A stretch of DNA of 64,000 bases from Gammaproteobacteria bacterium (lineage in GTDB: Bacteria; Pseudomonadota; Gammaproteobacteria; Steroidobacterales; Steroidobacteraceae), in assembly GCA_025357915.1 (NCBI GenBank), contig JANYLH010000044.1:14390-78389 (forward strand). Reading direction: 5' to 3'. The position numbers and the translations under genes were made by a program. Positions within the stretch are counted from its first letter, which is position 1; each line of letters opens with the position of its first letter. Shown here piece by piece: positions 34,044-62,339 of the stretch. Under the pieces are notes generated by a model. It was not told where the DNA came from and ran no database searches. It saw only the letters and a list, made by a program, of their open reading frames with translations.

Positions 34044-34053
34044 GGACGCTGGC

Positions 34054-36288: not shown

Positions 36289-36440
36289 GCTCGGGCGCGC
36301 ACCGACAGGGGCGCCCGGTTGCGATGAAAAACCTGCTGGCGCAAGATACGCCGTCTGCGCGGGCTTTCGGGCGGATGCTGGTCGAGCGTTGCGGCGTGCT
36401 GCAGCGACGGGCGGCGACAATCACTTGATCCGGGAGTCAA

Positions 36441-37784
36441 ATGCAGCCATCACCTCGCCGGCGCCGTAGCTGCTTCGCCTGCGCCGTATTCACCCTGATG
36501 GCAATGACGGGACTGGCCCGTGCCACTGCGCCCACCGACCTCGACCTGCTCCTGGCGCAGTGCCAGTCGCAGCTCGACGCTGGCCACAGCGCCGACGCCT
36601 ACTCCCTGCTTTCGGCACATGAAGCGGAATTCGGCGGCCTCGCCGCCTTCGACTACCTCTACGGCATGGCGGCGCTCGACAGCGGCCACGCTTCCGAGGC
36701 CGGCTTTGCCCTGGCCCGCGTGGTGGCGATCGAGCCTGACTTCGACGGCGCGCGCATGGAACTGGCCCGCGCCTACTACGCGAGTGGCGACTACGAGTCG
36801 GCCCGCACCCAGTTTGCCTTCTTGCGCGAGCGCAGCCCACCGGCGCCCGCGCGCGCGCTCATCGATCGCTACCTTGCCGCCATCGACGACCATGTGGCCG
36901 TCTTGCGCCCGCGCCTGGTACTGAATTTCGATGGCGGCGGCGGCTACGACTCCAACGCCAATGGCTCGACCGCCGACCGGCAATTTCTCGGGTTCAATCT
37001 CGACGCCCGCAATGTGGCTGCCTCGACCGCGTTTGCCGATGCGACCTTCAGCGCGAGCTACGTGCGCCCGCAGGGGCGCCGCCTCGGCTGGACGGGCGAT
37101 CTGGCCGCGAACCAGCGCTGGAACCCCGGCGCTCACTTCGTTGACCAGTCGCTCCTGTCCGGCGCGCTGGCACTGGCCGGGCGGTTCGGCGAATGGCGGA
37201 CCGCGCTCGGCGTCAACGGCTATTGGGCCGCGCTGGATGGCGCTGGCCACGAGTGGAGCGGCAACGTGCAGGCGCGGGCGACGCATCCGATGGGCGCGCA
37301 CTGGTCTGCGACCAGCAGCGTCTCGTACGGCGCGCTGCGCTACCTGGATGAACGCCTCAGCCTGCTGGAGGTCAACCGCTTGCTCGGGAGCGTGCGGATC
37401 GACCGCGGCGGCCTCGCCGCCGGCGGCATCCTCTCAGTGACGCTGCTCGCGGGCCATGACAACGCGCAACAGGTCAGTTCACCGTATGGGGGTGCCCGCT
37501 ACGGCGCGCGCGCCTCTTATGCCTGGCAGGCGGGGCCGCGCGTCCGCGCGGTCGTCGACGCTGGCGGCCTGCGCAGCCGCTACGCGGGTGGTGCCGGTTT
37601 CTTCGGCCTCGCACGGCGCGATACCCAGTACTCGGCGCTGGTGCTGCTCGACATCGACGGCGCGCCGGCCGCGGGCTGGCACGTACAGCCGCGCCTGCGC
37701 TACACGCAGAACGACTCCAATGTTTCGCTCTACGCCTACGATCGCTGGGAAGCCGGCATTTTCCTGCACCGGACCTTTCACTAG
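36441..37784 (+). CDS. TPR + C-terminal beta-barrel outer-membrane protein, Slam/DUF560 (type XI secretion)-like
   Basis: A signal peptide is followed by a TPR-like N-terminal region of about 130 aa. The remaining roughly 300 aa are Gly/Asn/Tyr/Arg-rich with alternating-pattern segments. The size (447 aa) and architecture match Slam proteins. Family assignment is by pattern only. Confidence 0.5.
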   Translation: MQPSPRRRRSCFACAVFTLMAMTGLARATAPTDLDLLLAQCQSQLDAGHSADAYSLLSAHEAEFGGLAAFDYLYGMAALDSGHASEAGFALARVVAIEPDFDGARMELARAYYASGDYESARTQFAFLRERSPPAPARALIDRYLAAIDDHVAVLRPRLVLNFDGGGGYDSNANGSTADRQFLGFNLDARNVAASTAFADATFSASYVRPQGRRLGWTGDLAANQRWNPGAHFVDQSLLSGALALAGRFGEWRTALGVNGYWAALDGAGHEWSGNVQARATHPMGAHWSATSSVSYGALRYLDERLSLLEVNRLLGSVRIDRGGLAAGGILSVTLLAGHDNAQQVSSPYGGARYGARASYAWQAGPRVRAVVDAGGLRSRYAGGAGFFGLARRDTQYSALVLLDIDGAPAAGWHVQPRLRYTQNDSNVSLYAYDRWEAGIFLHRTFH

Positions 37785-37801
37785 CCTCCACGGGAATCCT
37801 C

Positions 37802-39442
37802 ATGAGCGCACGCACCTGTCGCCGCACCGACCGCCGCCTCCAGATCCTGCTCAGGGTCATGGCGCTGCTCGCCTTCAGCCCCTGCGCGCTTGCCGCGCAG
37901 GCGGGCAAGATCGTATTCGTGGCCGGCAACGTAACGCTGGAGGCGAGCCACCGCCCGCTCCAGCGCGGCGACACACTCAACACCGGCGACACGGTCGTGA
38001 CTGCGGCGGGCGCCCGCGCGCAGCTCTTGATGGGCGACGGCGCGCGGATTGCACTGCGTTCGGGGTCGCGCTTTCGTATCGATGCGTTCGAGCTTGGCGC
38101 CGCGGTCAGGAACCCGGCGGCCACGGCGGTCGCGGCCTCGACCGGGCGGAGCCTGAGCACGCTGCTCAGCGGTGGTTTTCACACCGCCTCAGGCAGCATT
38201 GGCAAGGCAGATCCGTCCGCGTACGAGGTGCGCGTGCCGGTCGGCACGCTCGGCATCCGCGGCACCGACTACGTAGCGGTGTACTGCCGCAGCGATTGTA
38301 CCGATGCGCCAGGACTGAAGCCCGGTGAACCGGTAAGAGACGGCCTGTACCTTGGCGTCTACTCCGGCAGCATCGTGTTTCGCGGCGGTGACCTTGAAGT
38401 CGTGGTCGCGGCGGGCGAGTTCGTGTTCATACCGGTGCCCGAACTCAAACCCGAACGGCTCCAGCTGCCACCGGCGCCGATAGTCGGCGACGGTGCCGGA
38501 CCACTCGACCTGGCAGGCGCCACCGCGGGCGTGCAGGCGCGCCCCGCCGGCAAGCACTCGGGTTTCGGTGATTCCGGCGGGGGTCATGGCCCGGCTTCCC
38601 CCGTCACGGAGCCGCCGCCGCCAGCCAACGGCACGGTCCAGCCGGTGGGCGGATCGGTGAACGGCGTGCCGATCGATCTGACGCCGGGCCAGCTGCCCAC
38701 ACGCAACGATTCCACCTGGATAACCGGCCCGGTGCGCGGCCTGTTCAGTCCCGGCAGCAACGCCGCGGCCACGACGCAGTATGGCTTTGGCGGTACAGGC
38801 GGCGGCGCCACCGTGCTGCCCGTGCTGGGCGATGCGGGGGCCGCTTTGCTGCAGATCGGCACAGCCACCGCCAGCGAGTCGGGGTTCGATGCCGCGACCG
38901 GACTGCGCTGGGGTCGCTGGAGCGGCGGCAGCGTCAACCTCGTCACCGCAACCGGCGGCAGCGTGCCGGTGCCGCTCGGGAGCGACAGCGTGCACTGGGT
39001 TGCCGGAAGCGGCTACGTCGATGCTGCCATCCCGGTGCTGCCGGTCAGCGGCACGGCGACTTACAACCTCGCAGGCGCCACCCGCCCGACCGACGGCCTG
39101 GGCAACCTCGGCACACTCAACAGCCTTAAGCTGACCGCCGACTTCAGCGCGAACGCAGTGACCGCAGCCCTGGCGCTGACCATCGCCAACGTGGACTGGA
39201 TCGCCAGCGGCAACGGCTTCATCCTCGCGGGCTCGAAGACGACTGGCCCACAGTTCAACGGCGCGTTCGGCGCGCCCTCGATAGGCGGCTCCACGCAATT
39301 GGGCGGTGGCGGCCAGTTCAGCGGCTTCTTCAGCAATGTGCCCGGACAGGTATCGGGCGCGCCTGGCGCAGCCGGCATCTCCTATACCCTGTTCGCGCCA
39401 GGGGCTGGCACTGTATCGGGTGCAGCGGCACTCAGCCGATGA
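37802..39442 (+). CDS. secreted FecR-domain protein with TbpB/fHbp-like C-terminal 8-strand-barrel motif (candidate Slam cargo)
   Basis: It has a signal peptide and a FecR domain (GKIVFVAGNVTLEASHRPLQRGDTLNTGDTVVTAAGARAQLLMGDGARIALRSGSRFRI). The C-terminus reads GTATYNLAG...LTADFSANAVTAAL...GQFSGFF...GAAGISYTLF, like TbpB-type barrel domains. Confidence 0.6.
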   Translation: MSARTCRRTDRRLQILLRVMALLAFSPCALAAQAGKIVFVAGNVTLEASHRPLQRGDTLNTGDTVVTAAGARAQLLMGDGARIALRSGSRFRIDAFELGAAVRNPAATAVAASTGRSLSTLLSGGFHTASGSIGKADPSAYEVRVPVGTLGIRGTDYVAVYCRSDCTDAPGLKPGEPVRDGLYLGVYSGSIVFRGGDLEVVVAAGEFVFIPVPELKPERLQLPPAPIVGDGAGPLDLAGATAGVQARPAGKHSGFGDSGGGHGPASPVTEPPPPANGTVQPVGGSVNGVPIDLTPGQLPTRNDSTWITGPVRGLFSPGSNAAATTQYGFGGTGGGATVLPVLGDAGAALLQIGTATASESGFDAATGLRWGRWSGGSVNLVTATGGSVPVPLGSDSVHWVAGSGYVDAAIPVLPVSGTATYNLAGATRPTDGLGNLGTLNSLKLTADFSANAVTAALALTIANVDWIASGNGFILAGSKTTGPQFNGAFGAPSIGGSTQLGGGGQFSGFFSNVPGQVSGAPGAAGISYTLFAPGAGTVSGAAALSR

Positions 39443-39452
39443 GCCCGCGCCA

Positions 39453-41861
39453 TTGCTGACCGAGCGCGTCTCGATCGCAGTGATCGGCGCCGGCCCGGCC
39501 GGCCTTTCGGCCGCGGCCCACGCCGCCGACCTTGGCATCCCGCACCTGCTGCTCGAGGCGAGTCCGGGTCACGCCAACACCATCCGTAAATACCAGAAGG
39601 GCAAGCACGTCATGGCCGAGCCAGGGGCGCTGCCGCTGCGCAGCCCCCTGCCGTTTGCGGCCGCGGTCCGTGAGGCCGTGCTCGAGGGCTGGGACGCCGG
39701 ACTCGCGGCGCATCGCGTCAATGTCCGCTACGGCGCCGAGGCGGTCGCCATCAGCGGCTCGCGCCCGCAATTCCAGATCGCGTTGAAGGATGGCAGCGTG
39801 GTCCACGCCGAGTGCGTCGTGCTTGCAATCGGCGTGCAGGGAAATCCGCGCAAGTTGGGCGTGTCCGGCGAAGACCTGGCTTGCGTGCAATACCAGCTCG
39901 ACGATGCCGACGCCTATCGCGACGAGGCCATCGTCGTCGTCGGCGCCGGCGATGCCGCGATCGAGAACGCGCTGGCGCTGTCGAAGCGTAACCGCGTCTG
40001 CCTGGTGAACCGTGCCGCCGAGTTCTCGCGCGCCAAGGAAGGCAACCTGAGCGCGGTGCTCAAGGCAATCGAAGCCGGCACGCTCAGCTGCTTCTTCAAG
40101 AGCTCCTGTGCGCGCATCGAGGCCAGTGCCGGCGCGCAGCGAGGTTATCGCCTGACGCTCGACACCGATACCGGCGAGGCCAGCGTCGCGTGCGACCGGA
40201 TCATCGCCCGGCTCGGGGCCATCCCGCCGCGGCAATTTCTCGAGGCCTGCGGTGTCGGGTTCCCGGGGCCGCAGCCGACCGCGCTGCCTATCCTGTCCGA
40301 CCAGTACGAGTCGAGCGTGCCCGGGCTGTACGTGGTCGGTGCGCTCGCTGGCTATCCGCTGATCAAGCAGGCGATGAACCAGGGCTATGAGGCGGTCGAG
40401 TACAGCCGCGGGCGCGCTGTGGAGCCGGCCGACGAGCCGATCCTGCGCGAGCGGTTCGCACCGCTCCCCTTCGGCCTGACGGTCGCCGGCACGCTGGCGT
40501 TGATCCGCGAGCGCGTGCCGCTGTTCGCGGAGGTGAACCCGTTGCTGCTGCGCGAGCTGGTGCTGGGCAGCGAAGTCCACGCACCCGCGTCCGGCACCGT
40601 GCTGTTCCGCAAGAACGACTACACCAATTCGTTTTACACGATCATAAATGGCGGCGTCGACATGGAACTCGGCGACGAGGGCCAGCAACGCATAGCACTG
40701 CGCCAGGGTCAGTTCTTCGGCGAGGGGAGTCTGCTGTCCGGCCGTCGGCGCGCCGGCAGCGCGCTGGCCGGCGCCGGCTGCGTGGTGCTGGAGACGCCGC
40801 GCCGCGAGATCCTCAAGCTCATGAGCTCGGTCGACGGGGTCCGGCGCGTGGTCGACGAGCTGTTCATCATCCGCGCGATCCAGTCAAGCTTCGCGACCGA
40901 CGCCTCCTTCGACGAACTGCGCACGGTCGCCGCCGGCGCGCGGCTCAACCGCTACCGGCCGGGCGAGATGCTGTTCGAGGAAGGCGCGGTCGCCGACTGC
41001 CTGCACCTGGTGCGGAGCGGTTCGGTCGCGGTATTGCGCCAGCTCGGCGGGCGCGACGTCGTTACGTCGTATGTTGCCGCGGGCAACTATGTCGGCGAGA
41101 TCGGCCTGCTGGGCCGCACGCGGCGTACGGCGAGCGTGCGGGCGAACGTCGCCACCGAGACCGTGAGCATTGACGCCGCCGCCTTCGACCAGCTGCTGGC
41201 GCGCAACGCGGCGCTGCGCGAGCGCATCCAGGACACCATCCGTGAGCGGCTGGCCGCGAACGCGCGCATGCAGGGCCAGACCCAGGCGGGCGACCTGATC
41301 TCGTTTCTGATGCAGCAGGGCCTGGGGGAGGCCACCGACGTGCTGCTGATCAACGAGTCGCTGTGCGTGGGCTGCGACAACTGCGAGAAGGCCTGCGCCG
41401 AAACGCACGGCGGCACCTCGCGCCTCGACCGCGGGGCCGGGCCGAGCTTCGCGCAGGTGCACGTACCCACCTCCTGCCGGCACTGCGAGGACCCGCACTG
41501 CATGACCGATTGCCCGCCGGACGCGATCCGGCGCGCACCGGACGGCGAGGTGTACATCCGCGACAACTGCATCGGCTGCGGCAACTGCGAGCGCAACTGC
41601 CCGTACGGCGTGATCCAGATGGCCGCCGCGACGCCTGCCAAGCCCCCGCTGCTGGCGTGGCTGCTGTTGGGAAGCGGTCCCGGGCCCGGCGGCGTGGCCG
41701 GCGCGCCCGCCGACCCGCAAGCCGCGAAGAAGGCCGTGAAATGCGACATGTGCAAGGACCTGGGCGGCGGCCCCGCCTGCGTCCGCGCCTGCCCGACGGG
41801 CGCCGCGATCCGCATCAGTCCCGAGCGCTTCGTCGAGCTCGCCCATGGCAGCGATGTCTAG
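39453..41861 (+). CDS. fusion protein: FAD/NAD(P)-binding oxidoreductase + two cyclic-nucleotide-binding domains + four-cluster [4Fe-4S] ferredoxin (DmsB/NrfC-like)
   Basis: VIGAGPAGLSAA (FAD), VVVGAGDAAIENA (NAD(P)) and GLYVVGALAG are present. The cNMP motifs are FFGEGSLL... and YVGEIGLLGRTRRTASVRA. The Cys motifs are CVGCDNCEKAC, CRHCEDPHCMTDCP, CIGCGNCERNCP and CDMCKDLGGGPACVRACP. The start (TTG 39453) is inferred and uncertain. Confidence 0.8.
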   Translation: MLTERVSIAVIGAGPAGLSAAAHAADLGIPHLLLEASPGHANTIRKYQKGKHVMAEPGALPLRSPLPFAAAVREAVLEGWDAGLAAHRVNVRYGAEAVAISGSRPQFQIALKDGSVVHAECVVLAIGVQGNPRKLGVSGEDLACVQYQLDDADAYRDEAIVVVGAGDAAIENALALSKRNRVCLVNRAAEFSRAKEGNLSAVLKAIEAGTLSCFFKSSCARIEASAGAQRGYRLTLDTDTGEASVACDRIIARLGAIPPRQFLEACGVGFPGPQPTALPILSDQYESSVPGLYVVGALAGYPLIKQAMNQGYEAVEYSRGRAVEPADEPILRERFAPLPFGLTVAGTLALIRERVPLFAEVNPLLLRELVLGSEVHAPASGTVLFRKNDYTNSFYTIINGGVDMELGDEGQQRIALRQGQFFGEGSLLSGRRRAGSALAGAGCVVLETPRREILKLMSSVDGVRRVVDELFIIRAIQSSFATDASFDELRTVAAGARLNRYRPGEMLFEEGAVADCLHLVRSGSVAVLRQLGGRDVVTSYVAAGNYVGEIGLLGRTRRTASVRANVATETVSIDAAAFDQLLARNAALRERIQDTIRERLAANARMQGQTQAGDLISFLMQQGLGEATDVLLINESLCVGCDNCEKACAETHGGTSRLDRGAGPSFAQVHVPTSCRHCEDPHCMTDCPPDAIRRAPDGEVYIRDNCIGCGNCERNCPYGVIQMAAATPAKPPLLAWLLLGSGPGPGGVAGAPADPQAAKKAVKCDMCKDLGGGPACVRACPTGAAIRISPERFVELAHGSDV

Positions 41862-42744
41862 CATTCACGAGTCGGCCCTCGCCTACCGCGGGCGCCGCTA
41901 CCTGTGGGTCGCGCTGGCACTGACGGCAGCCTCCGTGCTCGCCTACGCGTGGCACTCGCCAGCCGTACCGCCGAACGGCGGCACCTGGCTGGGCTATACG
42001 CTGGGCACGGTCGCCGCGCTACTGATCCTGTTGCTGCTGGCGCTCGGCATCCGCAAGCGCAGCTACCACTCGACGCTCGGCACCGTCAGCGGCTGGGTAT
42101 CGGCGCACGTATACCTGGGGCTGGCACTGGTCGTGGTGGCCACGCTTCACACCGGGTTTCACTTCGGCCGCAACGTGCACACGCTCGCCTACGTGCTGAT
42201 GTGTCTGGTCATCGCACTGGGCATCGTCGGCGTCGTGCTGTACGCGCGCTACCCGGCCCGCATGAGCGTCAACCGCCAGGGGCGCGCACGCGCGCAACTC
42301 GTGGAAGAGGTCAACGATCTCAATGCCCGCGCACTGCGCGTCGCGCAACCGCTGCCCGCGGAATTCCTGGCGGCGGTGCGCAGCGCGCGCGACCGGCTGG
42401 TGCTCGGCGGCAACGCCTGGACGCTGCTCACCGGCCGCGACCGCTCCCGCGTCGTGCTGCCAGGGAGCGACGGCGCCAGCGCGCCGCTCGCCAACCCCTT
42501 TCAGGCGACGCTGATCGCCTGGCTTGGCGACCGCCTCGCGCGCTGCCAGGACGGCGAGGTGGCGCCGCGCATTCAGAGCCTGCTCACGCTCATCAGCGCC
42601 CAGCGGGTCGCAATCGAGCGCCTCAAACGCGACCTCGCCTTCCAGGCGCGGCTCGACGCCTGGCTGTATTTGCACGTGCCGTTGTCCTTCGCGTTGCTGG
42701 CCGCGCTCCTGGCGCATGTCGTCAGCGTGTTCCTGTACTGGTAA
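41845..42744 (+). CDS. integral membrane protein with two HX13H motifs (putative di-haem b, ferric-reductase/NOX-like transmembrane electron carrier)
   Basis: About five hydrophobic helices by eye. His88/His102 sit in helix 3 and His277/His291 in the last helix, each pair separated by exactly 13 residues. It overlaps the upstream gene by 17 nt. Confidence 0.7.
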   Translation: MAAMSSIHESALAYRGRRYLWVALALTAASVLAYAWHSPAVPPNGGTWLGYTLGTVAALLILLLLALGIRKRSYHSTLGTVSGWVSAHVYLGLALVVVATLHTGFHFGRNVHTLAYVLMCLVIALGIVGVVLYARYPARMSVNRQGRARAQLVEEVNDLNARALRVAQPLPAEFLAAVRSARDRLVLGGNAWTLLTGRDRSRVVLPGSDGASAPLANPFQATLIAWLGDRLARCQDGEVAPRIQSLLTLISAQRVAIERLKRDLAFQARLDAWLYLHVPLSFALLAALLAHVVSVFLYW

Positions 42745-42754
42745 GGCCTGCGCC

Positions 42755-44464
42755 GTGCGTACCCTGATCCGCTTCGTCAGCCGCGCCACAGGCGGTGCCG
42801 TCGAGACCAGCGAGCGGCTCTTCGATGGCGAGGCGCTCACTCTCGGCCGCGCCACCGACCAGGTGCTGCAGTTCAAGGACGGACGTGTGGCATTCCAGCA
42901 CGCGCGGATCTTCCGGCGGGGCAGCCGCGTGCTGCTCGCCTGCCGCGCGCCGGCGACCGTCATCGTCAACGACGCATTGGTGCGCGAGGCGGAGTTGTCG
43001 CTGGGCGACGTACTGCGTCTGGGCGCAAACGTACTCACGCTCATCGAGCCGCCCGCCGGCGCCGATCTCGCGCTGACCTTCGAGCTCGATCCGGCTGCGT
43101 CCGAGGCGGAACTCGCGACGGTCAATGCACCGCTCCTGCTCTCGGGCGGGCGGCTCGGCAAGCGCGGCTGGTCCTGGCTGCTGTTTCTCACACTGCTGGG
43201 CGCGTTCCTCGTGCTGCCGGTATTGGTGTTGCCTGCGAAGTCCACCCGCGAGGCGCTGCGCGCGAGCTGGCTGCCGAGCGATCACGCCTATTCGCCCGGC
43301 GCGCTGCACTCGGTGCACCAGACGATCGGCGGTCGCTGCGAGGCGTGCCACCAGCAGGCCTTCGTCCGGGTACGCAACGAGGCGTGCCTCGCCTGCCACG
43401 CGACGGAACTGCATCGGCACGTCGACGCGGGCAGCCCACGGGCGCGTGCAGTGGAGCAGATGCGCTGCCTTGCCTGCCATTCCGGCCACGAACCCGCGCC
43501 GTTGCTGCGCAGCGGCTCCGGCGGCTGCGTCGCTTGCCACGCTGACGTCTCGCTCGCCGGCGACCCGCACCGCCTCGGTGCCGTCAGCGACTTCGGTCGC
43601 GCGCACCCGGAGTTCCGCGTCACCTTGCTGCGCCCGGACGCCGCCGGCATCGCTGGCGCGAGTGAGCGGGCGCGCCTCGATGCGCCCGCGCTGCGCGAGC
43701 ACTCGCACCTCAAGTTCTCGCACGCGCAGCACCTCGATCCGCGGGGAGTCAAGACGCTGGACGGGCGCCGGGTGCTCGGCTGTGCCGATTGCCACGTGCC
43801 CGAGCCCGGCGGCGGGCGCATGTTGCCGATCCGCATGGCGGCGCACTGCCAGAGCTGCCACCGGCTCGACTTTGACCCGGCGTTCCCGGACCGCCAGCTG
43901 CCGCACGGCGATGTGACCGGGGCGGTGAACACGCTGTTCGAATACTACAGCGCACGCTACCTGGAGGGCTGGCCGGATCCGAACGCGCGAGCGTCCGCCG
44001 GGCGCTTCGCGGCGACGCCTGGACCCGCGCTGGCACCGGCCGAGCGTGAGCGCCGGCTCGGCCTCGCACGCACGCGCGCCGCAGTGGTCGCGCGTGACCT
44101 CATCGAGCGGCGCGCCTGCGTCGTGTGTCATGAAGTACGCGTGGTCGCGGACGCGGCGCTGCGCTGGCAGGTCACGGCAGTACGGCTCACGCACGCCTGG
44201 TTCCCGGCTGCGCGGTTCGATCACGCGCAGCACACCACTACGCTGACGCCGTGCTCCTCGTGCCACGACGCGGCACATTCCACACAGTCCGCGGACGTGC
44301 TCATGCCACGCATCGCGACCTGCCGTCGCTGTCACGCGGGGAGCGGCGGCGCGGCGCCGCCCGCCGGCAAGGTGGCGACCGGATGTCCGGCCTGCCATGC
44401 GTTCCACGACCCGCGGCGCGCGCCCTGGGTTCCGGTGGCGCAGCCAACGGATCCGGGACGGTGA
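42755..44464 (+). CDS. FHA domain - single TM - decahaem c-type cytochrome (cytochrome c3/c7-like)
   Basis: An N-terminal FHA-like fold (LTLGRATDQVLQFKDGRVAFQHARI...VIVNDALV...LSLGDVLRLGANVL) is followed by a TM (WSWLLFLTLLGAFLVLPVLVLPA). Ten CXXCH motifs follow: CEACH, CLACH x2, CVACH, CADCH, CQSCH, CVVCH, CSSCH, CRRCH and CPACH. GTG start at 42755. Confidence 0.85.
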   Translation: MRTLIRFVSRATGGAVETSERLFDGEALTLGRATDQVLQFKDGRVAFQHARIFRRGSRVLLACRAPATVIVNDALVREAELSLGDVLRLGANVLTLIEPPAGADLALTFELDPAASEAELATVNAPLLLSGGRLGKRGWSWLLFLTLLGAFLVLPVLVLPAKSTREALRASWLPSDHAYSPGALHSVHQTIGGRCEACHQQAFVRVRNEACLACHATELHRHVDAGSPRARAVEQMRCLACHSGHEPAPLLRSGSGGCVACHADVSLAGDPHRLGAVSDFGRAHPEFRVTLLRPDAAGIAGASERARLDAPALREHSHLKFSHAQHLDPRGVKTLDGRRVLGCADCHVPEPGGGRMLPIRMAAHCQSCHRLDFDPAFPDRQLPHGDVTGAVNTLFEYYSARYLEGWPDPNARASAGRFAATPGPALAPAERERRLGLARTRAAVVARDLIERRACVVCHEVRVVADAALRWQVTAVRLTHAWFPAARFDHAQHTTTLTPCSSCHDAAHSTQSADVLMPRIATCRRCHAGSGGAAPPAGKVATGCPACHAFHDPRRAPWVPVAQPTDPGR

Positions 44465-46434
44465 AGCGCGCATCGGCCTGTCTCGCTCCACTGGCGGCGC
44501 TGACGTTGTCGGCCTGTGGCGGTGGGGGCGAAGTCGCTTCGGGTGTGCCCACAAGCCCGCCGCCCCCGGGCCTGGTCTGTACCGGCCAGTGCGCGAATGC
44601 CCTCACGCTGCTGTCGCAGGCGGACGTGGAGCGCACGATCGCGCAGGCGGTCGCCGAGGCGCAGGCCCGCGGCGCGCACGCCACCGTCGCGGTTGTCGAC
44701 CGCGTTGGCAACGTGCTCGGTGTGTTCCGCATGAATGGCGCGGCGAATACCGTCACGATCGGGTCGGGACTGGCCACAGGCGGTCTCGAGAACGTCACGA
44801 TTGTCCCTGACACAGTCGCGGCCATCGCCAAGGCCGTGACGGCGGCATACCTGTCGAGCGAAGGCAATGCGTTCTCGACCCGCACAGCGAGTCAGATCGT
44901 GCAGGAGCATTTCAATCCGGGCGTAGCGCTGGCGCCGGGCGGTCCGCTGTTCGGCGTGCAGTTCAGCCAGCTGCCCTGCTCCGATCTGATGGCGCGGGCG
45001 GGAGCCGCGCCCGCCCCTGGCCCGCAGCGCTCGCCGCTGGGCCTCGCGGCGGATCCGGGTGGCCTGCCGCTCTACAAGGCCGGCACGCCGGTGGGCGGCG
45101 TGGGCGTAATCGCCGATGGCCGCTACGGGCTGGATCGCAACGTGCTCGACACGGACGTGGATCTGGACGAAACGATCGCGCTCGCCGCGACCTTTGGGCT
45201 CGCGGCGCCCGACGATCGCCGCGCCGACCGGATCACGGCTGATGGCAGGACGCTGCGTTTCAGCGATGCGACGGTGGCGACGCTCGCCAGTGCGCCCGCT
45301 GCTGCGCCGTCATTCGCGTCCCTGGACGGCGTCGCGGGTCACCTGCTTGCAGTGCCCGGCTACGGCGCAGCGACGACGCGCGCGGGCCTCGCGTATGGCA
45401 CGAGCGCCTCGGGCATCCGCTCCGATGCCAGCGACTACCCGGGACTCGACGCGCAGGTGCTGGTGGACGCGAGCGATGCGCCCCGCTATCCGCCGCGCGC
45501 CGGCAGCGAAACCTCGGGTGCACTGAGTGCGACCGAAGTGCGCGAGATCCTGCGCGCGGCACTCGGCGTGGCGAACCGCACCCGCGCCCAGATCCGCCTG
45601 CCGCTTGGCTCGCAGGCGCGCGTCACCGTCAGCGTCGTCGACAGTCAGGGTGTAGTCCTCGGAATAGCCGCTATGCGCGACGCACCGGTATTCGGCGTCG
45701 ACGTCTCGCTGCAAAAGGCGCGCTCGAGCGCGTTCACGAGCTCGGCGGCCGCGGCCGCGGCACTCGCGGCTGCGCCCGATGCGGTCTATCTCGACGGTGG
45801 ACTGAGTGTGCTCGCGCGGGTGCCACTGGCCAGCTACGTGACGGCGACGCGCGCATTCCTGGGGTTGCCAGCAGCGCTCGGCGACGGCGGCGTCGCCTTC
45901 AGCGCGCGCGCGCTGGGCAACATGGCGCGACCGTTCTATCCCGACGGCGTCGACGGCACCCATGCCGGACCCTGGTCCAGGCCGGCCGCGGCGTGGAGCC
46001 CGTTCAGCACCGGCTTACAGCTGGATCTGGTTTATAACGCCCTGGTGCAGCATGTCGCCTTCGTGCTTGGCGCGGCACCCGACGTGGGCTTCAGTTGCAC
46101 CGGTGTCAGCGGCTTTGACACCGGCTTTGCTCCCGCCGCGCCCATCCCGGCGCTCGCCAATGGCCTGCAGATCTTTCCGGGCGGCGTGCCGATCTATCGG
46201 GACCACACGCTGGTCGGCGCGATCGGCGTGTCAGGCGATGGCGTCGACCAGGATGACATGATCGGCTTCCTGGGCGTCGATAGCGCCGCGCAACGCCTCG
46301 GCGGCTTCGGCAATGCGCCGCCCGACCTGCGCAGCGACACGCTGGTGCCGCGCGGCGCGCGCTTGCGCTATGTCGGCTGCCCGGTGGCACCGTTCCTCGA
46401 CTCGTCGACGCAGGACGAGTGCAGTGGCCGCTAG
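44461..46434 (+). CDS. lipoprotein with two GlcG/HbpS-like (DUF336, haem-binding/degrading fold) domains
   Basis: A lipobox (LTLSAC). Domain 1 reads LSQADVERTIAQAVAEAQARGAHATVAVVDRVGNVLGVF...GGLPLYKAGTPVGGVGV. Domain 2 reads VTVSVVDSQGVVLGIAAM...GGVPIYRDHTLVGAIGVSGDGVDQDDMI. GTGA overlap with the upstream stop. Confidence 0.7.
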   Translation: MKRASACLAPLAALTLSACGGGGEVASGVPTSPPPPGLVCTGQCANALTLLSQADVERTIAQAVAEAQARGAHATVAVVDRVGNVLGVFRMNGAANTVTIGSGLATGGLENVTIVPDTVAAIAKAVTAAYLSSEGNAFSTRTASQIVQEHFNPGVALAPGGPLFGVQFSQLPCSDLMARAGAAPAPGPQRSPLGLAADPGGLPLYKAGTPVGGVGVIADGRYGLDRNVLDTDVDLDETIALAATFGLAAPDDRRADRITADGRTLRFSDATVATLASAPAAAPSFASLDGVAGHLLAVPGYGAATTRAGLAYGTSASGIRSDASDYPGLDAQVLVDASDAPRYPPRAGSETSGALSATEVREILRAALGVANRTRAQIRLPLGSQARVTVSVVDSQGVVLGIAAMRDAPVFGVDVSLQKARSSAFTSSAAAAAALAAAPDAVYLDGGLSVLARVPLASYVTATRAFLGLPAALGDGGVAFSARALGNMARPFYPDGVDGTHAGPWSRPAAAWSPFSTGLQLDLVYNALVQHVAFVLGAAPDVGFSCTGVSGFDTGFAPAAPIPALANGLQIFPGGVPIYRDHTLVGAIGVSGDGVDQDDMIGFLGVDSAAQRLGGFGNAPPDLRSDTLVPRGARLRYVGCPVAPFLDSSTQDECSGR

Positions 46435-48226
46435 CGCAACTCGCGCCTGCGCGTGCGCGCTGGCCCTCGCCGGTGCGGGTCTTGCCACCGGCGTGGTCCG
46501 CGCCGGAGACGGGAGCACGACCGCGCCCTGCCCGCCCGAGTCCCCGGTCGCGGCCGAACGCAAGGCACCGGCGGTACCCGAGCTGCCCGGCTTCGCGCCC
46601 ACGCCGTGCAATCCGGCCGCGCTACCCCCACCGCGCGCGGACCAGCCGGGGACGCTCGCCGGGCTCCCGGATCGCTGGCGCATGGTCTCGACGCTGGGGT
46701 ACCCCGAGCGGCTCCACGACCCCTACCACGGCAACAACTGGTTGAAGGGCGATCGCCCGGCGTTCGGTGCTGACTGGTTCGTCAACCTCGCGGCGGTCGC
46801 GGATACCGTCGTCGAGCCCAGGCGCTTCCCGCTGCCAGTCGGCAACGTCGTCACCGAACGCCCGGGGAGCCTCGACGCCTACGGGCACGGCGCGAGCCAG
46901 CTCTATGCCCAGACCCTCGCCTTCGAGGCCGTCCTCTATCAGGGCGATACCGTATTCAAGCCGCCGGAGTGGGAGTTTCGCCTCACGCCCGTCTTCAGCG
47001 TCAATCGTGTCGAGGTAGGCGAGCGCGGCCTGGTGAACGCCGCCGCAGGCGCGCCGCTGTCGCGCACCGACACGGCGCTCGGGCTGCAGGCGGCGTTCGT
47101 CGATCGCCATCTGCGCAATGTTTCCGCGCACTACGATTTCGACAGCCTGCGCGTCGGCATCCAGCCGGTGACCGCGGACTTCCGCGGCTTCCTCTACACG
47201 GATGCGGCGCTAGGCGTGCGGCTGTCTGGCAACCGGGCCAACAATCGCTACCAGTACAACTTGGGTTGGTTCCGTCGCCTGGAGAAGGACACCAATTCCG
47301 GACTCAACGACGTGTTCGCTCGTGGCCTCGCCTCACTGCGCCATGACAGCGTAGTGCTCGCCAACCTGTACGCGCAGGACACGCCACTGCCCGGTTTCAC
47401 CTCGCAACTGGTGGTGGCGTACAACCGCAACCGGGAAGGCGGCGAACTACGCTACGACGGCAACGGCGCGCTGCAGCGTCCGGCGCAAATCGGTGATGGC
47501 CGCGGCCGCGACTACCAGGTGACCTACCTCGGCGTCAACGGCGATGGCCATGTCGGCGTGCTCAACGCGACCATTGCCGGCTACTTCGTATTCGGGCACG
47601 AATCGCGCGGCACCTTCGCCGCCGCCGCAGACCAGGTGCGCGCCTTCTTCGCAGCCGCCGAAGTGTCGCGCGACTGGGACTGGCTACGGGTCCGCGCTTC
47701 GATCGCGCTGCAGAGCGCCGATCACGATCCATTCGACCGGCGTGCCACCGGGTTCGATGCGATTGTAGAGAACCCGTTGTTCGCCGGCGCCGATACCAGT
47801 TTCTGGATCCGTCAGCCGGTGCCACTGATTGCCGGCGGCGGCGTATCACTGTCGGGTCGCAACGGCCTGCTCAGCTCGTTGCGCTCCTCGAAGGAATTCG
47901 GCCAGTCCAACTTCACCAACCCGGGACTGCAGCTGGTTGGCGTCGGCGCCGACGCGGACCTCACGCCGACGCTGCGGGTCAGCGCGAACGCCAACGACCT
48001 GCGCTTTGGCGACACGGCGGTGCTCGAGGTGGCGCGCGCGCAGGCATCGATCCCAAGACGCATCGGGCTCGACCTCTCGCTCGCGCTCAGCTGGCGTCCC
48101 CTCGCCACGCAGAACGTGGTCGCACGCCTGTCGGCCGCGAAGCTGCTGCCGGGCAGCGGCTGGAAAACGCTTTATGGCGGCGAGCAGGGCTATTCCATTC
48201 TCGGCAACCTGATACTGAGCTACTGA
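46424..48226 (+). CDS. putative outer-membrane beta-barrel protein (unassigned family)
   Basis: A signal peptide (ACACALALAGAGLATGVVRAGD). It contains abundant alternating aromatic/polar stretches such as YQYNLGWFRRLEKD, YQVTYLGVNGDGHVGVLNATIAGYFVFG and LDLSLALSWRPL. The C-terminus is aromatic (NLILSY). The GTG start at 46424 overlaps the upstream gene. Confidence 0.55.
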   Translation: MAASATRACACALALAGAGLATGVVRAGDGSTTAPCPPESPVAAERKAPAVPELPGFAPTPCNPAALPPPRADQPGTLAGLPDRWRMVSTLGYPERLHDPYHGNNWLKGDRPAFGADWFVNLAAVADTVVEPRRFPLPVGNVVTERPGSLDAYGHGASQLYAQTLAFEAVLYQGDTVFKPPEWEFRLTPVFSVNRVEVGERGLVNAAAGAPLSRTDTALGLQAAFVDRHLRNVSAHYDFDSLRVGIQPVTADFRGFLYTDAALGVRLSGNRANNRYQYNLGWFRRLEKDTNSGLNDVFARGLASLRHDSVVLANLYAQDTPLPGFTSQLVVAYNRNREGGELRYDGNGALQRPAQIGDGRGRDYQVTYLGVNGDGHVGVLNATIAGYFVFGHESRGTFAAAADQVRAFFAAAEVSRDWDWLRVRASIALQSADHDPFDRRATGFDAIVENPLFAGADTSFWIRQPVPLIAGGGVSLSGRNGLLSSLRSSKEFGQSNFTNPGLQLVGVGADADLTPTLRVSANANDLRFGDTAVLEVARAQASIPRRIGLDLSLALSWRPLATQNVVARLSAAKLLPGSGWKTLYGGEQGYSILGNLILSY

Positions 48227-48233
48227 CAGAGCG

Positions 48234-51200
48234 ATGCGCCACTACACCATCCTGCTGGCCTTCACGACGCTTGCCTGCCTGGCGCGCGGCGCGCCTGCGC
48301 AGGCTGCTGCCGACGAGGAAACGCCCGTCGAGCGCGCCTGGGTGACGGCGCCGTCCGCGCCGGCAAGCCAGACGCAATCGGCCGCGGATGCCAAGAGCGA
48401 GGGCTGCATCTCCTGTCACGCAGCCAGCGACGCTGCGAGCATGCACGCGGCGAAGGCGGTCGTGCTCGGCTGCACCGACTGCCACGGCGGCGATGCGTCA
48501 GTGCGCTGGCGCGGCGCGGCCTCAAAGAGTGATCCGCAGTATTCTGCGAGCCGCGATCGCGCCCACGTGCTGCCGCGCTTTCCGGCGAGCTGGCACTACC
48601 CGGACAGCGCCAACCCGGAGCGCAGCTACACGCTCCTGAACCGCGAGGCCCCGGAGTTTATCCGCTTTAAAAACCCTGGCGACTACCGGATCGCGCGCGA
48701 GGCCTGCGGCGCCTGCCATCTGCGCATCATCGAGGCCGCGGAACGGAGCCTCATGTCCACGAACGCGATGTTCTGGGGCGGCGCCGCGTACAACAACGGC
48801 ATCCTGCCGTTCAAGAACTACCTGCTCGGCGAGGGTTATACGCGCGAGGGCAAGTCGACGGTTATCGAAGGGCCACCCCTCACGCCCGAGGAAGCGTTGC
48901 AGCATGGCATCCTGCCCCGCCTCTATCCCCTACCGCGCTTCGAGACCATCCGGCCCGGCGATATCTTCCGGGTTTTCGAGGACGGCGGCCGCAACATCTC
49001 GAACCTGTTCCCCGAGACGGCCCTGCCGAACGTGTCGGGCGAACTGGAGCGGCTTGAGGAACCGGGCCGGCCCGATATCCGCCAGTCCAATCGCGGCCCC
49101 GGCACGGGCGCGCGCATCGCGGTGCCGGTGCTCAACATCCACAAGACGCGCCTCAACGACCCGCTTGCATGGTTCCTCGGCACCAACGACCAGCCCGGTG
49201 ATTACCGCTCCTCGGGCTGCAGCGCCTGCCACGTGGTTTACGCCAACGACCGCGACCCGGCGCACTCCGGGCCCTACGCGCGCTACGGGCACGAGGGCAC
49301 CTCGCAGCAGCGCGACCCGGTGATTCCGCGCGACCGGCCCGGCCACGCCCTGCAGCACGCGTTCACGCGCAGCATCCCTTCCAGCCAGTGCATGGTCTGC
49401 CACATGCACCAGCCGAACATGTTCATGAACACGTTCTACGGCTACACGATGTGGGACTACGAATCCGACGCGCCCTCAATGTGGCCCGGGCAACAGCGCT
49501 ACCCCACCGCCGATGAGACGCGGGCCGTGCTCGACCGCAATCCCGAGGGCGCCGCACCGCGTGGCAACTGGGCGGATCCCGGGTTCCTCAGCCGGGTCTG
49601 GGAACTCAACCCCGGGCTCAAGGATACGCAGTTCGCCGACTACCATGGCCACGGCTGGAATTTTCGCGCTGTCTTCAAGCGCGATCGCCATGGGCACCTG
49701 CAGGACAGCGCGGGCGCGATCGTCGCCAACGACGACCCGCAAAAGTGGGCCAAGGTCGTGCACATGGCTTCGGTGCATGTCGATGTCGGCATGCACTGCG
49801 TCGACTGTCACTACGGCCAGGACGCGCACGGCACCGGCCACATCCATGCCGAGGTCGCGCAGGCAGTCGAGATTGACTGCAAGGACTGCCACGGCACCGT
49901 GCGAGCCTACCCGACACTGCGCACTTCCGGTCCCGCAGCCGGCCCGAACGGCACCGACCTCGCGACGATTCGAAACCCCGACGGCCGTCTGCGCTTCGAG
50001 TGGCGCGACGGAAAACTGCTGCAACGCTCCGCCGTGGATCCCGCGAGGGAATGGGTGGTCTCGCTGGTCAAGGATTCGGTGACTCCAGGAAATCCGCGTT
50101 ACAACCCGCGCGCCGCGCGCGCCAAGCTCATGGCGAGGGATCCGCTGGGGCAGAAGTGGGGCACCGACGTCGCCTGGCCGCAACTCGCGCACAGCGACGA
50201 CAACATGGAGTGCTACTCCTGCCACACGTCGTGGACCACGAGCTGCGGGGGCTGCCACTTGCCGATTGAGGCCAACTGGAAGAGCGAGAAACACCGCTTC
50301 GAGGGCGGCACGAGCCGCAATTACGCCAGCTACAACCCGCAGGTGGCGCGCGACGACATGTTCCTGCTCGGTCGCCGCGGGCCGGTCGAGAACGGCAAGA
50401 TCGCCCCGGTGCGCTCGTCCTCGGCGCTGGTGCTGTCCTCGACCAACGCGAATCGCGAGCACATCTACGTGCAGCAGCCACCGATTGCAGCCTCGGGCTT
50501 TAGCTCACAGGCGATGAACCCGCACTACCCGCACACCGAGCGCAAGACCGAGACCAAGACCTGCAGTGACTGCCACCTGGCGGCCACGCGTGACAACAAC
50601 GCGATCATGGCGCAGACCCTGGGTCAGGGTACGCAGTACATCAACTTCGTCGGGCTCAACGCCTACCTCGGCACCGAGCGCGCGGTCGCCGCGGTGCAGG
50701 TAACCGAGTGGGAGGAGCCGCAGGCGGTCATCGGCAGCTACCTGCACCGCTATGCGTATCCCGATTACTACGCGGCACACCTGGCGCGCGGCCGGCAGCT
50801 GACGAACGCGGCCACGCACGCCTCCGGGCCCGCCAGCTGCGTGCAGCAACGCGGCGAATACCTGTACGCCTCCGAGGGCCATGGCGGATTGCGCGTCTAT
50901 GACATTGCCAGCATCGCCAACAAGGGAGTCAGCGCCCGGATTCTCAGCGCGCCGTTCTCGCCGTTGGGCCACGATACGCACGTGACCACGCGTGATGCCT
51001 CCTGCGTGGTGCTCGCGACCACGCAACCGGTGCAGCCCTCGCGCAACCAAGGTGCGCTGATGCGCGAGGCCAACCTCGAGCAGCCCTTCCTCGACGTCTA
51101 TCGTTACGCGTTCATCACTGACCGGGTCGAAGGGCTGATCCTGGTGGACATCGACACGCTCATGGACGGCAACTTCCGCAACAACCAGCTGCGGCGGGCG

Positions 51201-51974
51201 CTCACCTGGAACCCCGGCGGAGTGCTGCGCGGCGCGCGACACCTCGCCATCGGCGGCCGCTACCTCTACATCGTTGCCGACGCGGGCCTGATCGTTGCCG
51301 ACTTCCAGGATCCGCTCGCCCCGCGCGTACTCGCAACCGTCCCGCTGGACGACGCGCGCGCCGCGATGCTGCAGTTCCGCTATCTGTTTGTCACCGACCG
51401 CAGCGGGCTCGCGGTCATCGACGTCACGCATCCCGAGGGGCCACGCCTGGTGCCCGGCGCGCGCGTGCCGCTCGCCGACGCGCACAAGCTGTTCGTGTCG
51501 CGCACCTACGCCTGGGTGGCCAATGGTCGCGAGGGCCTGGCGATCATCGATGTCGAGAAACCCGAGGCGCCACGCCTGTTCCGGAACTTCAACGCCGACG
51601 GCGCGCTCGGCGATTCCCGCGACGTGGTGCTCGCGGCGACCAATGCCTCGTCATTCGCCTACGTGGCCGACGGCGCGGGCGGACTCAAGGTGATCCAGAC
51701 GATCGCCCCGGACACGCAGCCCGATTTCTACGGCTTCGCGCCCGAACCCCGGCCGCAGTTGATCGCGAGCTACCGCACGGCGGCCCCGGCCCTCGCCCTG
51801 TCGCGGCCGCTTGAGCGCGACCGCGCGGTGGACGAGAGCGGCGGGCAGGTTGCAGTATTCGGCCGCCGCGGCTCACGACCGTTTACTCTGCAGGAGATGC
51901 AACGCATGTACCTCGACGCAGCGGGTAACCCGTGGTTCGTCAGCGATTCCACGGCCCCTGGAGCGCCGCGATGA
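48234..51974 (+). CDS. 1246-aa secreted decahaem c-type cytochrome fused to a C-terminal LVIVD-repeat beta-propeller
   Basis: It has a signal peptide. Ten CXXCH motifs are spread over about 800 aa: CISCH, CTDCH, CGACH, CSACH, CMVCH, CVDCH, CKDCH, CYSCH, CGGCH and CSDCH. About six LVIVD-type repeats follow: GGLRVYDIASI, EGLILVDIDTL, AGLIVADFQDPLAP, SGLAVIDVTHPEGP, EGLAIIDVEKPEAP and GGLKVIQTIAP. Confidence 0.85.
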   Translation: MRHYTILLAFTTLACLARGAPAQAAADEETPVERAWVTAPSAPASQTQSAADAKSEGCISCHAASDAASMHAAKAVVLGCTDCHGGDASVRWRGAASKSDPQYSASRDRAHVLPRFPASWHYPDSANPERSYTLLNREAPEFIRFKNPGDYRIAREACGACHLRIIEAAERSLMSTNAMFWGGAAYNNGILPFKNYLLGEGYTREGKSTVIEGPPLTPEEALQHGILPRLYPLPRFETIRPGDIFRVFEDGGRNISNLFPETALPNVSGELERLEEPGRPDIRQSNRGPGTGARIAVPVLNIHKTRLNDPLAWFLGTNDQPGDYRSSGCSACHVVYANDRDPAHSGPYARYGHEGTSQQRDPVIPRDRPGHALQHAFTRSIPSSQCMVCHMHQPNMFMNTFYGYTMWDYESDAPSMWPGQQRYPTADETRAVLDRNPEGAAPRGNWADPGFLSRVWELNPGLKDTQFADYHGHGWNFRAVFKRDRHGHLQDSAGAIVANDDPQKWAKVVHMASVHVDVGMHCVDCHYGQDAHGTGHIHAEVAQAVEIDCKDCHGTVRAYPTLRTSGPAAGPNGTDLATIRNPDGRLRFEWRDGKLLQRSAVDPAREWVVSLVKDSVTPGNPRYNPRAARAKLMARDPLGQKWGTDVAWPQLAHSDDNMECYSCHTSWTTSCGGCHLPIEANWKSEKHRFEGGTSRNYASYNPQVARDDMFLLGRRGPVENGKIAPVRSSSALVLSSTNANREHIYVQQPPIAASGFSSQAMNPHYPHTERKTETKTCSDCHLAATRDNNAIMAQTLGQGTQYINFVGLNAYLGTERAVAAVQVTEWEEPQAVIGSYLHRYAYPDYYAAHLARGRQLTNAATHASGPASCVQQRGEYLYASEGHGGLRVYDIASIANKGVSARILSAPFSPLGHDTHVTTRDASCVVLATTQPVQPSRNQGALMREANLEQPFLDVYRYAFITDRVEGLILVDIDTLMDGNFRNNQLRRALTWNPGGVLRGARHLAIGGRYLYIVADAGLIVADFQDPLAPRVLATVPLDDARAAMLQFRYLFVTDRSGLAVIDVTHPEGPRLVPGARVPLADAHKLFVSRTYAWVANGREGLAIIDVEKPEAPRLFRNFNADGALGDSRDVVLAATNASSFAYVADGAGGLKVIQTIAPDTQPDFYGFAPEPRPQLIASYRTAAPALALSRPLERDRAVDESGGQVAVFGRRGSRPFTLQEMQRMYLDAAGNPWFVSDSTAPGAPR

Positions 51975-61236: not shown

Positions 61237-61483
61237 GACAGACTTGTAAGCCAGCGCCCGTCGCAGCGCAATCGAAACTCCAGTACGATGCCGCGGTATT
61301 GCGGGCGCGGCCGGCCCGATCCGGTGCATCTGTGACCCCAGACGCGCCCGGGAGGGGCCGCGGATGGTAACTTTTGCGGCGCGGCGCGCTCCAGCCGCTC
61401 GACCAGGAAGGCAGCGGACCAGTACCTGTGATCCAGTTCACGCTTTCAAGCCAGCTCAAGAGCCCGGGCCCCAGGGTCCGCCG

Positions 61484-62308: not shown

Positions 62309-62339
62309 TCCCCAATAGACGAGAACAAAGCGAGTACAT

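Follow-up and report, generated by a model that had tools for sequence, protein, structure and literature searches.

The fusion of an FHA domain to a multihaem cytochrome raises the question of what a domain generally associated with phosphothreonine recognition might do at the cytoplasmic end of an electron wire. One such fusion is encoded at positions 42755-44464 of a 64,000-nucleotide stretch of DNA from a gammaproteobacterium of the Steroidobacteraceae (GenBank assembly GCA_025357915.1, contig JANYLH010000044.1, positions 14,390 to 78,389 of the forward strand), here called the window; all window genes given below with coordinates lie on its forward strand. The predicted product carries an FHA domain, a single transmembrane helix and a domain with ten haem-binding motifs. 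The cycling of iron, manganese and possibly nitrogen depends on electron conduits that span the cell envelope, and the inner-membrane step is the least understood part of such conduits outside Shewanella and Geobacter. A first-pass annotation of the window had proposed that the FHA domain couples the cytochrome to Ser/Thr kinase signalling, or mediates its phospho-dependent docking to the products of the two genes upstream.

Here, we describe a computational analysis of this protein, its relatives and its conserved gene neighbourhood. The answer that we hold to be probable, with modest confidence, is that the FHA-decahaem protein is the inner-membrane haem wire of a three-part redox module, in which the FHA domain would act as a phospho-independent dock and regulation would be exerted by cyclic nucleotides. 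The FHA fold is real, its ligand face is the most conserved part of the protein, and two of the four residues of the canonical phosphothreonine pocket are replaced in nearly the whole family.

An FHA fold with a non-canonical ligand face

A cytoplasmic, non-canonical FHA domain is assigned to residues 1-111 (42755-43087) on the basis of Pfam, alignment to the mycobacterial FhaA structure 3po8, an AlphaFold2 model, Foldseek and a residue census. The Pfam FHA family PF00498 matched residues 29-90 with 26.0 bits (cut-off 20.7). An AlphaFold2 model of the window cytochrome, built on 74 relatives and with a mean predicted local distance difference test score (pLDDT) of 79, contains an 11-strand sandwich over residues 1-111 at pLDDT 83-94 (about 90), followed by a disordered linker, a helix at residues 134-158 and the haem domain. 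When the model was compared with the PDB by Foldseek, the best 50 matches were all FHA domains (TM-score 0.65-0.79 on the target), including those of GarA, FhaA, OdhI, KIF13, Ki67, DgcB, Rv1747 and EmbR, with GarA-KGD complexes ranking highest. Sequence comparison points the same way: the closest PDB entry by phmmer is the FHA domain of Mycobacterium tuberculosis FhaA (3po8, E 7.6e-4), and the family profile retrieves FhaA and GarA from the PDB at E 3e-5. The cytoplasmic domain of SctD/YscD (PF16697) remained below threshold in the window protein (24.1 bits, cut-off 33.2); a precomputed PF16697 match is carried by many family members, and Pfam scans of the cluster proteins found no type III secretion genes in the cluster. 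The FHA fold is genuine.

The residues of the phosphothreonine pocket were mapped by alignment to FhaA 3po8, which is gap-free between the conserved V-N and the loop concerned, and were counted in 259 full-length cluster representatives. R32 (G31-R32) corresponds to the FhaA beta3-beta4 loop Arg and is Arg in 241 of 259 relatives (93%). H49, the structural His of the S-x-x-H motif in the beta4-beta5 loop, is His in 226. The phosphate-binding Ser of that motif is replaced by A46 in the window protein; at this position the census found Ala in 159 relatives, Gly in 23, Pro in 17, Arg in 12 and Ser in just 11, the canonical Ser being present in a few alpha- and betaproteobacterial lineages. In the beta6-beta7 loop A65-P66-A67-T68 is aligned to S-T-N-G of FhaA, so that A67 replaces the Asn that contacts the ligand backbone; position 67 is Ala in 127 relatives, Gly in 39, Ser in 38, Thr in 16 and Asn in 7. 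The phosphothreonine-binding residues on which the first-pass annotation depended have therefore survived in part, as Arg32 and His49, while Ser and Asn have given way to A46 and A67. We infer that this domain is not a canonical phosphothreonine reader, having kept the Arg and His and lost the Ser and Asn.

Conservation of the domain is nevertheless high. Mean column conservation is 0.69 in the FHA domain versus 0.59 in the haem domain, the beta3-beta4 loop TLGRATDQ (conservation 0.92) is the joint top 8-mer of the whole protein, and the search by which further loci were found selected two FHA loops as the best-conserved stretches of the family. Because conservation exceeds that of the haem domain and the TLGRATDQ loop tops the protein, we conclude that the FHA domain is not decaying: its usual ligand face is under strong selection, yet is built unlike a phosphothreonine pocket. 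Since Ser and Asn are lost but the loops of the ligand face are the most conserved, we read the domain as a likely phospho-independent docking surface. More generally, the label "FHA" should not be equated with phospho-signalling in annotation unless the pocket residues have been checked.

The reading frame and the protein family

The open reading frame at 42755-44464 begins with GTG, 10 nucleotides past the stop codon of the gene before it, and its product is 569 residues long. Pfam, gene calls and alignment all identify the frame as an FHA-transmembrane-decahaem cytochrome c gene. Given this start codon, an annotation artefact has to be considered, in which the real start lies downstream and the FHA segment is untranslated, or in which the frame is no gene at all. 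The GTG is preceded by only a weak AAGG 8 nucleotides upstream, and the frame failed a crude filter on GC content by codon position. Against this, independent gene callers agree on the same GTG start in the identical public contig L001 (GCA_043726045.1), an MRxLIRF N-terminus is kept from residue 1 in over 100 relatives, whose start codon is mostly ATG, about 140 of the best 150 cluster representatives align from profile position 1 onward, and the FHA domain is more conserved than the haem domain. The retention of MRxLIRF from residue 1 rules out a start further downstream that leaves out the FHA domain, a possibility raised in the first-pass annotation, and the N-terminal domain is therefore translated; an artefact of either kind can hardly be the explanation.

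A protein search returned 311 relatives, the best 120 of which are 42-80% identical over 87-100% of the query. Nearly all of these 120 have both FHA and cytochrome c3 Pfam matches, and the names given to the relatives in their sources are solely "cytochrome c3 family protein", "FHA domain-containing protein" and "predicted CXXCH cytochrome". A profile search of 1.84 billion representatives of clusters at 50% identity gave 1,538 matches at E <= 1e-30. The family occurs in Alpha-, Beta- and Gammaproteobacteria, and its habitats include sediments, glacier-fed streams and lakes.

Decahaem versions that naturally have no FHA domain were also encountered (L100:716-3061, L009:6149-7669 and L010:7962-9485, where the prefix denotes the locus). 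These proteins are 481-507 residues long and have a cytoplasmic tail of about 20 residues. In L100 the gene for a protein with cyclic-nucleotide-binding (cNMP) and Fe-S domains lies upstream, with 15 nucleotides between the genes. As the FHA-less versions stand in similar gene clusters, the FHA domain was lost or never gained at least twice. Three further candidates, P0322, P0381 and P0386, were rejected as FHA-less representatives because their reading frames are cut by contig ends.

Membrane anchor and decahaem domain

The single transmembrane helix is placed at residues 134-158 (43154-43228) by the AlphaFold2 model, and R137, W141 and P155 within it are invariant or nearly so. Basic residues (R133, K136 and R137) stand at the start of the helix. 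Together with the CXXCH motifs further on, which need the periplasm, they point to an orientation with the N-terminus inside the cell.

Residues 174-552 (43274-44410) make up a predicted periplasmic decahaem domain, recognised by Pfam (Cytochrom_c3_2 at 43.5 bits, and Paired_CXXCH_1), ten CXXCH motifs and ten conserved candidate distal His residues. The motifs, at residues 195, 211, 238, 258, 343, 365, 455, 500, 523 and 544, are all invariant in the alignment of 74 relatives, as are, entirely or nearly, ten more His residues (H188, 222, 245, 284, 323, 326, 384, 490, 493 and 551). Exactly ten CXXCH motifs were counted in 264 of 267 family proteins. This pattern predicts ten haem sites of the bis-histidine type, and a single helix with its N-terminus inside would place them in the periplasm. 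Against solved structures the haem domain gave weak sequence matches of c7/c3 type, and the full-length cytochrome had no multihaem protein among its best 50 Foldseek matches in the PDB. No match to the NapC/NirT Pfam family was found for the window cytochrome, and NrfH (2j7a) was matched weakly, at E 0.032 over 50 residues.

The architecture read by the first-pass annotation, an FHA domain at residues 1 to about 110 followed by one helix with its N-terminus inside and a periplasmic decahaem cytochrome, is thereby upheld: Pfam, the AlphaFold2 model and Foldseek agree on the first part, so that both profile and structure prediction support the fold, and the helix at 134-158 and the ten CXXCH motifs agree with the rest.

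Two conserved partners upstream

To define the gene neighbourhood, window proteins were compared by tblastn with about 94 loci from metagenome-assembled genomes of Gamma-, Beta- and Alphaproteobacteria and from metagenome contigs; counts below are loci with the gene among those testable. The metagenome loci were retrieved with FHA-loop peptides, and one subfamily is consequently over-represented. The cluster reads, in order, CHASE2-cyclase, TPR protein, FecR protein, FAD-2xcNMP-2x[4Fe-4S] protein, five-helix di-haem-b protein, FHA-decahaem protein, HbpS-like lipoprotein, putative porin, decahaem-LVIVD protein and c554-like protein.

Directly upstream of the cytochrome gene, at 41845-42744, lies the gene for an inner-membrane protein of 299 residues with five transmembrane helices, which is present at this place in 76 of 76 loci. 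Alignment, the Pfam family PF01292 and an AlphaFold2 model together predict a di-haem cytochrome b. The protein contains two invariant motifs, W84x3H88x13H102 and W273x3H277x13H291, and a conserved S125-G126-x-x-G129; PF01292 (prokaryotic cytochrome b561) is matched by 18 of 22 members (best E 5e-7), and the model has five transmembrane helices with a cytoplasmic insert at about residues 140-265 (pLDDT 83). At least 5,420 members of this family exist, all named "hypothetical". Exactly this signature was described by He et al. 2017 (PMC5566968) for the "conserved inner membrane protein" of PCC3/PCC4 and was interpreted there as a pair of haem-b sites. The five-helix partner is predicted from these motifs to be the He-type di-haem-b protein, an identification added by the present analysis.

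The gene before it (39453-41861) encodes an 802-residue cytoplasmic fusion, delineated by Pfam and the gene call, of a TrxR/YpdA-like FAD/NAD(P)H oxidoreductase, two cNMP domains and a ferredoxin-type 2x[4Fe-4S] part. Its Rossmann motif is at the very N-terminus, and it has no signal peptide. The FAD part was found in 41 of 45 loci, the cNMP part in 49 of 54 and the Fe-S part in 55 of 59; the last is the best-conserved segment of the cluster (median identity 77%). The Fe-S gene and the five-helix gene overlap by 17 nucleotides at 41845-41861, and the four nucleotides GTGA at 44461-44464 are shared by the end of the cytochrome gene and the beginning of the lipoprotein gene; both overlaps suggest translational coupling. 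The association of the FHA-decahaem protein with two upstream proteins, anticipated in the first-pass annotation, is thus a conserved one, in 76 of 76 loci for the five-helix protein and in 55 of 59 for the Fe-S protein.

In a Sphingobium metagenome-assembled genome (L012:4626-9806) the inner-membrane trio, consisting of the FAD-cNMP-FeS, five-helix and FHA-decahaem genes, stands alone and is followed by unrelated genes; HbpS-like, porin-like and LVIVD cytochrome genes were not found within 8 kb of it. In a cluster of betaproteobacterial type (L103:11173-11416) the FAD-cNMP gene lies after the c554-like gene and not before the five-helix gene. Because of this relocation, the lack of an upstream Fe-S gene in L008, L016 and L010 does not amount to absence from the cluster, and it may reflect the 8-kb flanks. 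Co-occurrence of the FHA domain and the Fe-S gene was tried as a test of docking, beginning with L009 and L010, which have neither, and was abandoned in view of L100 and L103.

Probable control by cyclic nucleotides rather than phosphothreonine

The conserved signalling genes of the cluster are cyclic-nucleotide components. Upstream of the Fe-S gene lies a trio (34012-39442) that is kept there in 23-26 of 33-40 testable loci: a CHASE2 sensor with an adenylate/guanylate cyclase domain (34012-36288, an open frame whose start is not fixed; Pfam; 23/33 loci), a TPR protein (36441-37784; Pfam TPR_19; 23/36) and a FecR-domain protein (37802-39442; Pfam FecR; 26/40). Together with the two cNMP domains of the Fe-S protein, the trio suggests that the electron conduit is under cyclic-nucleotide control.

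The alternative is the one with which the locus was first read: a functional FHA domain would recognise phosphothreonine and thereby link the haem wire to signalling by Ser/Thr kinases and PP2C, or would recruit the upstream proteins once these are phosphorylated. The fold is real, the loop Arg and His are kept, the ligand loops are strongly conserved, and Ser stands at the canonical position in a few alpha- and betaproteobacterial lineages. The window also encodes a PP2C phosphatase (61250-62308) followed by a 239-residue FHA protein (62319-63038), 17 kb downstream. The first-pass annotation had described the latter as a dual-FHA protein. Both genes are indeed present, and Pfam recognises a single FHA domain in the second: its N-terminal domain is canonical (GR, SGHH and STNGT; Pfam 81 bits) and its C-terminal half has no Pfam match. 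Judged by these motifs, the host organism has canonical FHA domains for comparison. The PP2C/FHA pair has RadA and DnaB as its neighbours, and SppA, TrmD, RimM, Ffh, CorC and RadA, on mixed strands, lie between it and the cytochrome cluster; with six housekeeping genes intervening, we rejected a link between the pair and the cluster.

A tblastn search with the PknB kinase domain found no Hanks kinase in the window, as the first-pass annotation had noted, and across the roughly 94 loci it found one near the cluster in a single lineage alone (L079 and L081), leaving the other approximately 92 loci without. There, a c554-like cytochrome gene and a gene for a 438-residue Hanks-type Ser/Thr kinase form a divergent operon (L079:1676-4524, minus strand; also in L081), and the cyclase trio is absent. 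The kinase has a transmembrane segment and a TPR-like C-terminal region. This arrangement speaks for a phosphothreonine reader, but where a canonical pocket has Ser and Asn, the FHA domain of the L079 protein itself carries Gly and Ala. With Ser in 11 and Asn in 7 of 259 relatives, the PP2C/FHA pair unlinked and a kinase in one lineage only, the coupling to Ser/Thr-kinase signalling or phospho-dependent docking put forward at first is not supported, and we regard the phospho-signalling idea as unlikely.

Proposed electron path and its rivals

In the scheme that we consider probable, the two b haems of the five-helix protein would conduct electrons between the periplasmic decahaem chain and either the Fe-S/FAD subunit in the cytoplasm or the quinone pool, and the decahaem chain would in turn exchange electrons with periplasmic and outer-membrane cytochromes. 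We favour an outward flow, which would start at NAD(P)H and end outside the cell, because it would run with the membrane potential. The FHA domain would offer a phospho-independent docking surface on the cytoplasmic face, to which either the Fe-S/FAD subunit or the b-type subunit, by way of its cytoplasmic insert, would bind. Regulatory input would be a cyclic nucleotide, passing from the CHASE2 cyclase to the two cNMP domains of the Fe-S subunit, and not Ser/Thr phosphorylation.

Several observations weigh against this scheme. FHA-less cytochromes occur in otherwise complete clusters (L100, and also L009 and L010); some lineages thus manage without the FHA domain, which does not strictly accompany the Fe-S gene. 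Retention of Arg32 in 93% of relatives, with conserved basic residues (K41/R44) in the neighbouring loop, would also suit an anionic, even phosphorylated, ligand. The predicted haem-b assignment of the five-helix protein is drawn from motifs and weak profile matches: its AlphaFold2 model had no significant Foldseek match in the PDB (best E 0.29), and its profile retrieved chance coiled-coil matches alone from the PDB sequences. Finally, neither Foldseek nor the profile search of the PDB revealed a close solved relative of the haem domain.

Some of the same observations could be accommodated if the module worked as a quinol:cytochrome c oxidoreductase resembling CbcBA/CbcL or NapC/CymA. The quinone pool would then supply the electrons, either by way of the b-type subunit or to the anchored cytochrome directly, and the FAD/Fe-S/cNMP protein and the FHA domain would both lie outside the electron path as mere regulators or assembly factors, with roles such as oligomerisation or gating. 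A di-haem cytochrome b next to a multihaem cytochrome c with a transmembrane anchor is the CbcBA design, and PF01292, matched by 18 of the 22 five-helix members, is the family of the quinone-reactive HydC/FdnI-type cytochromes b. FHA-less variants with the same partners are what one would expect of an accessory domain, and coupling to quinone has been proposed both by He et al. 2017 (PMC5566968) and in a preprint on Ferrigenium (10.64898/2026.01.22.701106). On the other side, an Fe-S gene that is present in 55 of 59 loci, overlaps its neighbour by 17 nucleotides and has the top conservation of the cluster would be unusual for a mere regulator, and this gene stays in the cluster even when relocated, as in L103. 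Nor does the cytochrome match the NapC/NirT profile (NrfH at E 0.03), and no quinone site is identifiable from the sequence. We treat the quinol model as a serious competitor that is rather unlikely.

The three-part module with a docked Fe-S/FAD subunit admits a more specific version, in which the FHA domain is a switchable clutch: its Arg face, devoid of Ser and Asn, would reversibly dock a cNMP-gated NAD(P)H-FAD-[4Fe-4S] dehydrogenase on the di-haem-b/decahaem wire, bypassing quinone. This is a speculative proposal to which we assign little likelihood. If true, reducing equivalents from the cytoplasm could cross both membranes directly and reach an acceptor outside the cell, and the system would represent a bacterial, multi-subunit, second-messenger-controlled counterpart of electron export by NOX and ferric reductases, widespread in environmental Proteobacteria.

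Downstream genes of the cluster

The genes that follow the cytochrome gene encode candidate periplasmic and outer-membrane components. First comes a lipoprotein with three HbpS-like (haem-binding/degrading-like) domains (44461-46434), recognised by three Pfam stretches and the lipobox LSAC and located directly after the cytochrome gene in 58 of 61 loci. The next gene (46424-48226; gene call; 39/41 loci) encodes a 600-residue protein that ends in ...LILSY and for which Pfam and NCBIfam gave no match; we suspect from its sequence that it is an outer-membrane beta-barrel, possibly a porin. The corresponding porin-like product in L103 has 810 residues and an AMIN domain. A secreted decahaem cytochrome of 1,246 residues with LVIVD beta-propeller repeats follows (48234-51974; ten CXXCH, Pfam; 34/35 loci). 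This protein is among the best-conserved in the cluster, at a median identity of 65%, and shows a weak partial match to Geobacter ExtM. The last gene (51971-53272; 22/28 loci) encodes a cytochrome c554-like protein, defined by its count of four CXXCH motifs and one CX4CH.

Significance

Up to ten genes are clustered here, among them those for a cyclic-nucleotide sensor, a cytoplasmic NAD(P)H/Fe-S enzyme, a predicted cytochrome b and two decahaem proteins, and the system is widespread and mechanistically suggestive. If the scheme that we favour is true, it would provide a quinone-independent, second-messenger-gated route between the outside of the cell and the redox carriers of the cytoplasm. 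The conserved FHA face and the natural FHA-less variants would give a means of studying what keeps a soluble dehydrogenase attached to a cytochrome wire.

Proteins of this kind have so far been described bioinformatically only. The FHA-multihaem fusion has already been noted in one 2026 preprint, so that its initial description as a rarely discussed combination was fair, and similar gene sets have already been described as PCC4 (2017) and ptd (2024). The present analysis adds an estimate of how large the family is, extends the conserved cluster to a cyclic-nucleotide module, puts a predicted identity to the five-helix partner, and documents that the phosphothreonine-pocket Ser and Asn are lost and that FHA-less variants occur in nature.

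Comparison with known systems

The nearest described protein is "NHC" of Ferrigenium straubiae, a membrane-associated nonahaem cytochrome expressed under all conditions tested, whose authors regarded the combination of FHA and multihaem domains as previously unreported and found the inner-membrane trio alone (bioRxiv 10.64898/2026.01.22.701106). By its description, NHC resembles the window protein in having a cytosolic FHA domain, one transmembrane helix and a periplasmic multihaem part, with five-helix and [4Fe-4S] genes adjoining. It differs in having nine haems instead of ten and in a neighbourhood with nirK and an SHP-like gene and without the outer-membrane set. That study found no redox motif in the transmembrane protein and did not analyse the phosphothreonine residues.

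At the level of the gene cluster, the closest precedent is PCC4 (He et al. 2017, PMC5566968), which is the ptdABCDEFG operon (bioRxiv 10.1101/2023.11.21.568154) with PtdC/E/F/G as its inner-membrane part. As described, it has in a row an FAD/NAD(P) oxidoreductase, a cNMP-2x[4Fe-4S] protein, a ferric-reductase-like five-helix protein in which the WX3HX13H motif occurs twice, and a decahaem cytochrome, along with a porin and further multihaem cytochromes. This inner-membrane gene set is present in the window, and its order is kept in 41-76 loci. In the window cluster, unlike PCC4/ptd, the FAD and cNMP-FeS proteins are fused, and the HbpS-like lipoprotein, the decahaem-LVIVD protein and the c554-like protein are found where ptd has the penta- and tetrahaem PtdA and PtdD; no gene for a pentahaem PtdA-like protein was found in the window cluster, in which the c554-like protein with four CXXCH motifs and the putative porin are present. 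The PCC4 and ptd papers, both bioinformatic in their description, assign the decahaem protein to the periplasm and say nothing of an FHA domain (PMC5566968; bioRxiv 10.1101/2023.11.21.568154).

In function, the closest characterised systems appear to be CbcBA and CbcL of Geobacter, in which a di-haem b subunit is paired or fused with a membrane-anchored periplasmic multihaem cytochrome c (bioRxiv 10.1101/2021.04.15.440034). By design they feed periplasmic and outer-membrane cytochromes, and in the window, too, a di-haem b subunit is predicted next to the multihaem protein. CbcA, however, is a heptahaem protein whose membrane anchor is a C-terminal helix, the Geobacter complexes are menaquinol oxidases, and CbcBA and CbcL have no FHA domain, cytoplasmic FAD/Fe-S subunit or cNMP domains.

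For the cytoplasmic dock, a precedent is offered by SctD, whose FHA domains do not have the phosphothreonine residues and dock SctK without phosphorylation (bioRxiv 10.1101/2020.09.22.308627). SctD, YscD, PrgH and MxiG share with the window protein a cytoplasmic FHA domain, one transmembrane helix and a periplasmic domain. The periplasmic domain of SctD is unrelated, however, and the loop Arg that the window family keeps is lost in SctD. GarA and OdhI in complex with their enzyme targets provide another precedent for an FHA domain that works without phosphothreonine.

The Tmc, Hmc and DsrMKJOP complexes of sulfate reducers are built in the same three layers, with a multihaem cytochrome c in the periplasm, a cytochrome b in the membrane and an Fe-S subunit in the cytoplasm, and are functionally close to the window module. 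They differ in having an HdrD-like CCG cytoplasmic subunit and no FHA domain, and occur in other taxa with other partners, whereas the window module has a ferredoxin-type 2x[4Fe-4S] part fused to FAD and cNMP domains.

FhaA (Rv0020c) and GarA/OdhI contain the closest solved FHA domains by sequence and fold. They differ from the window protein in possessing the full Arg/Ser/His/Asn set, with which they bind phosphothreonine, in being soluble or otherwise anchored, and in having no cytochrome domain. GarA binds its enzyme targets by this same face, and this binding is phospho-independent.

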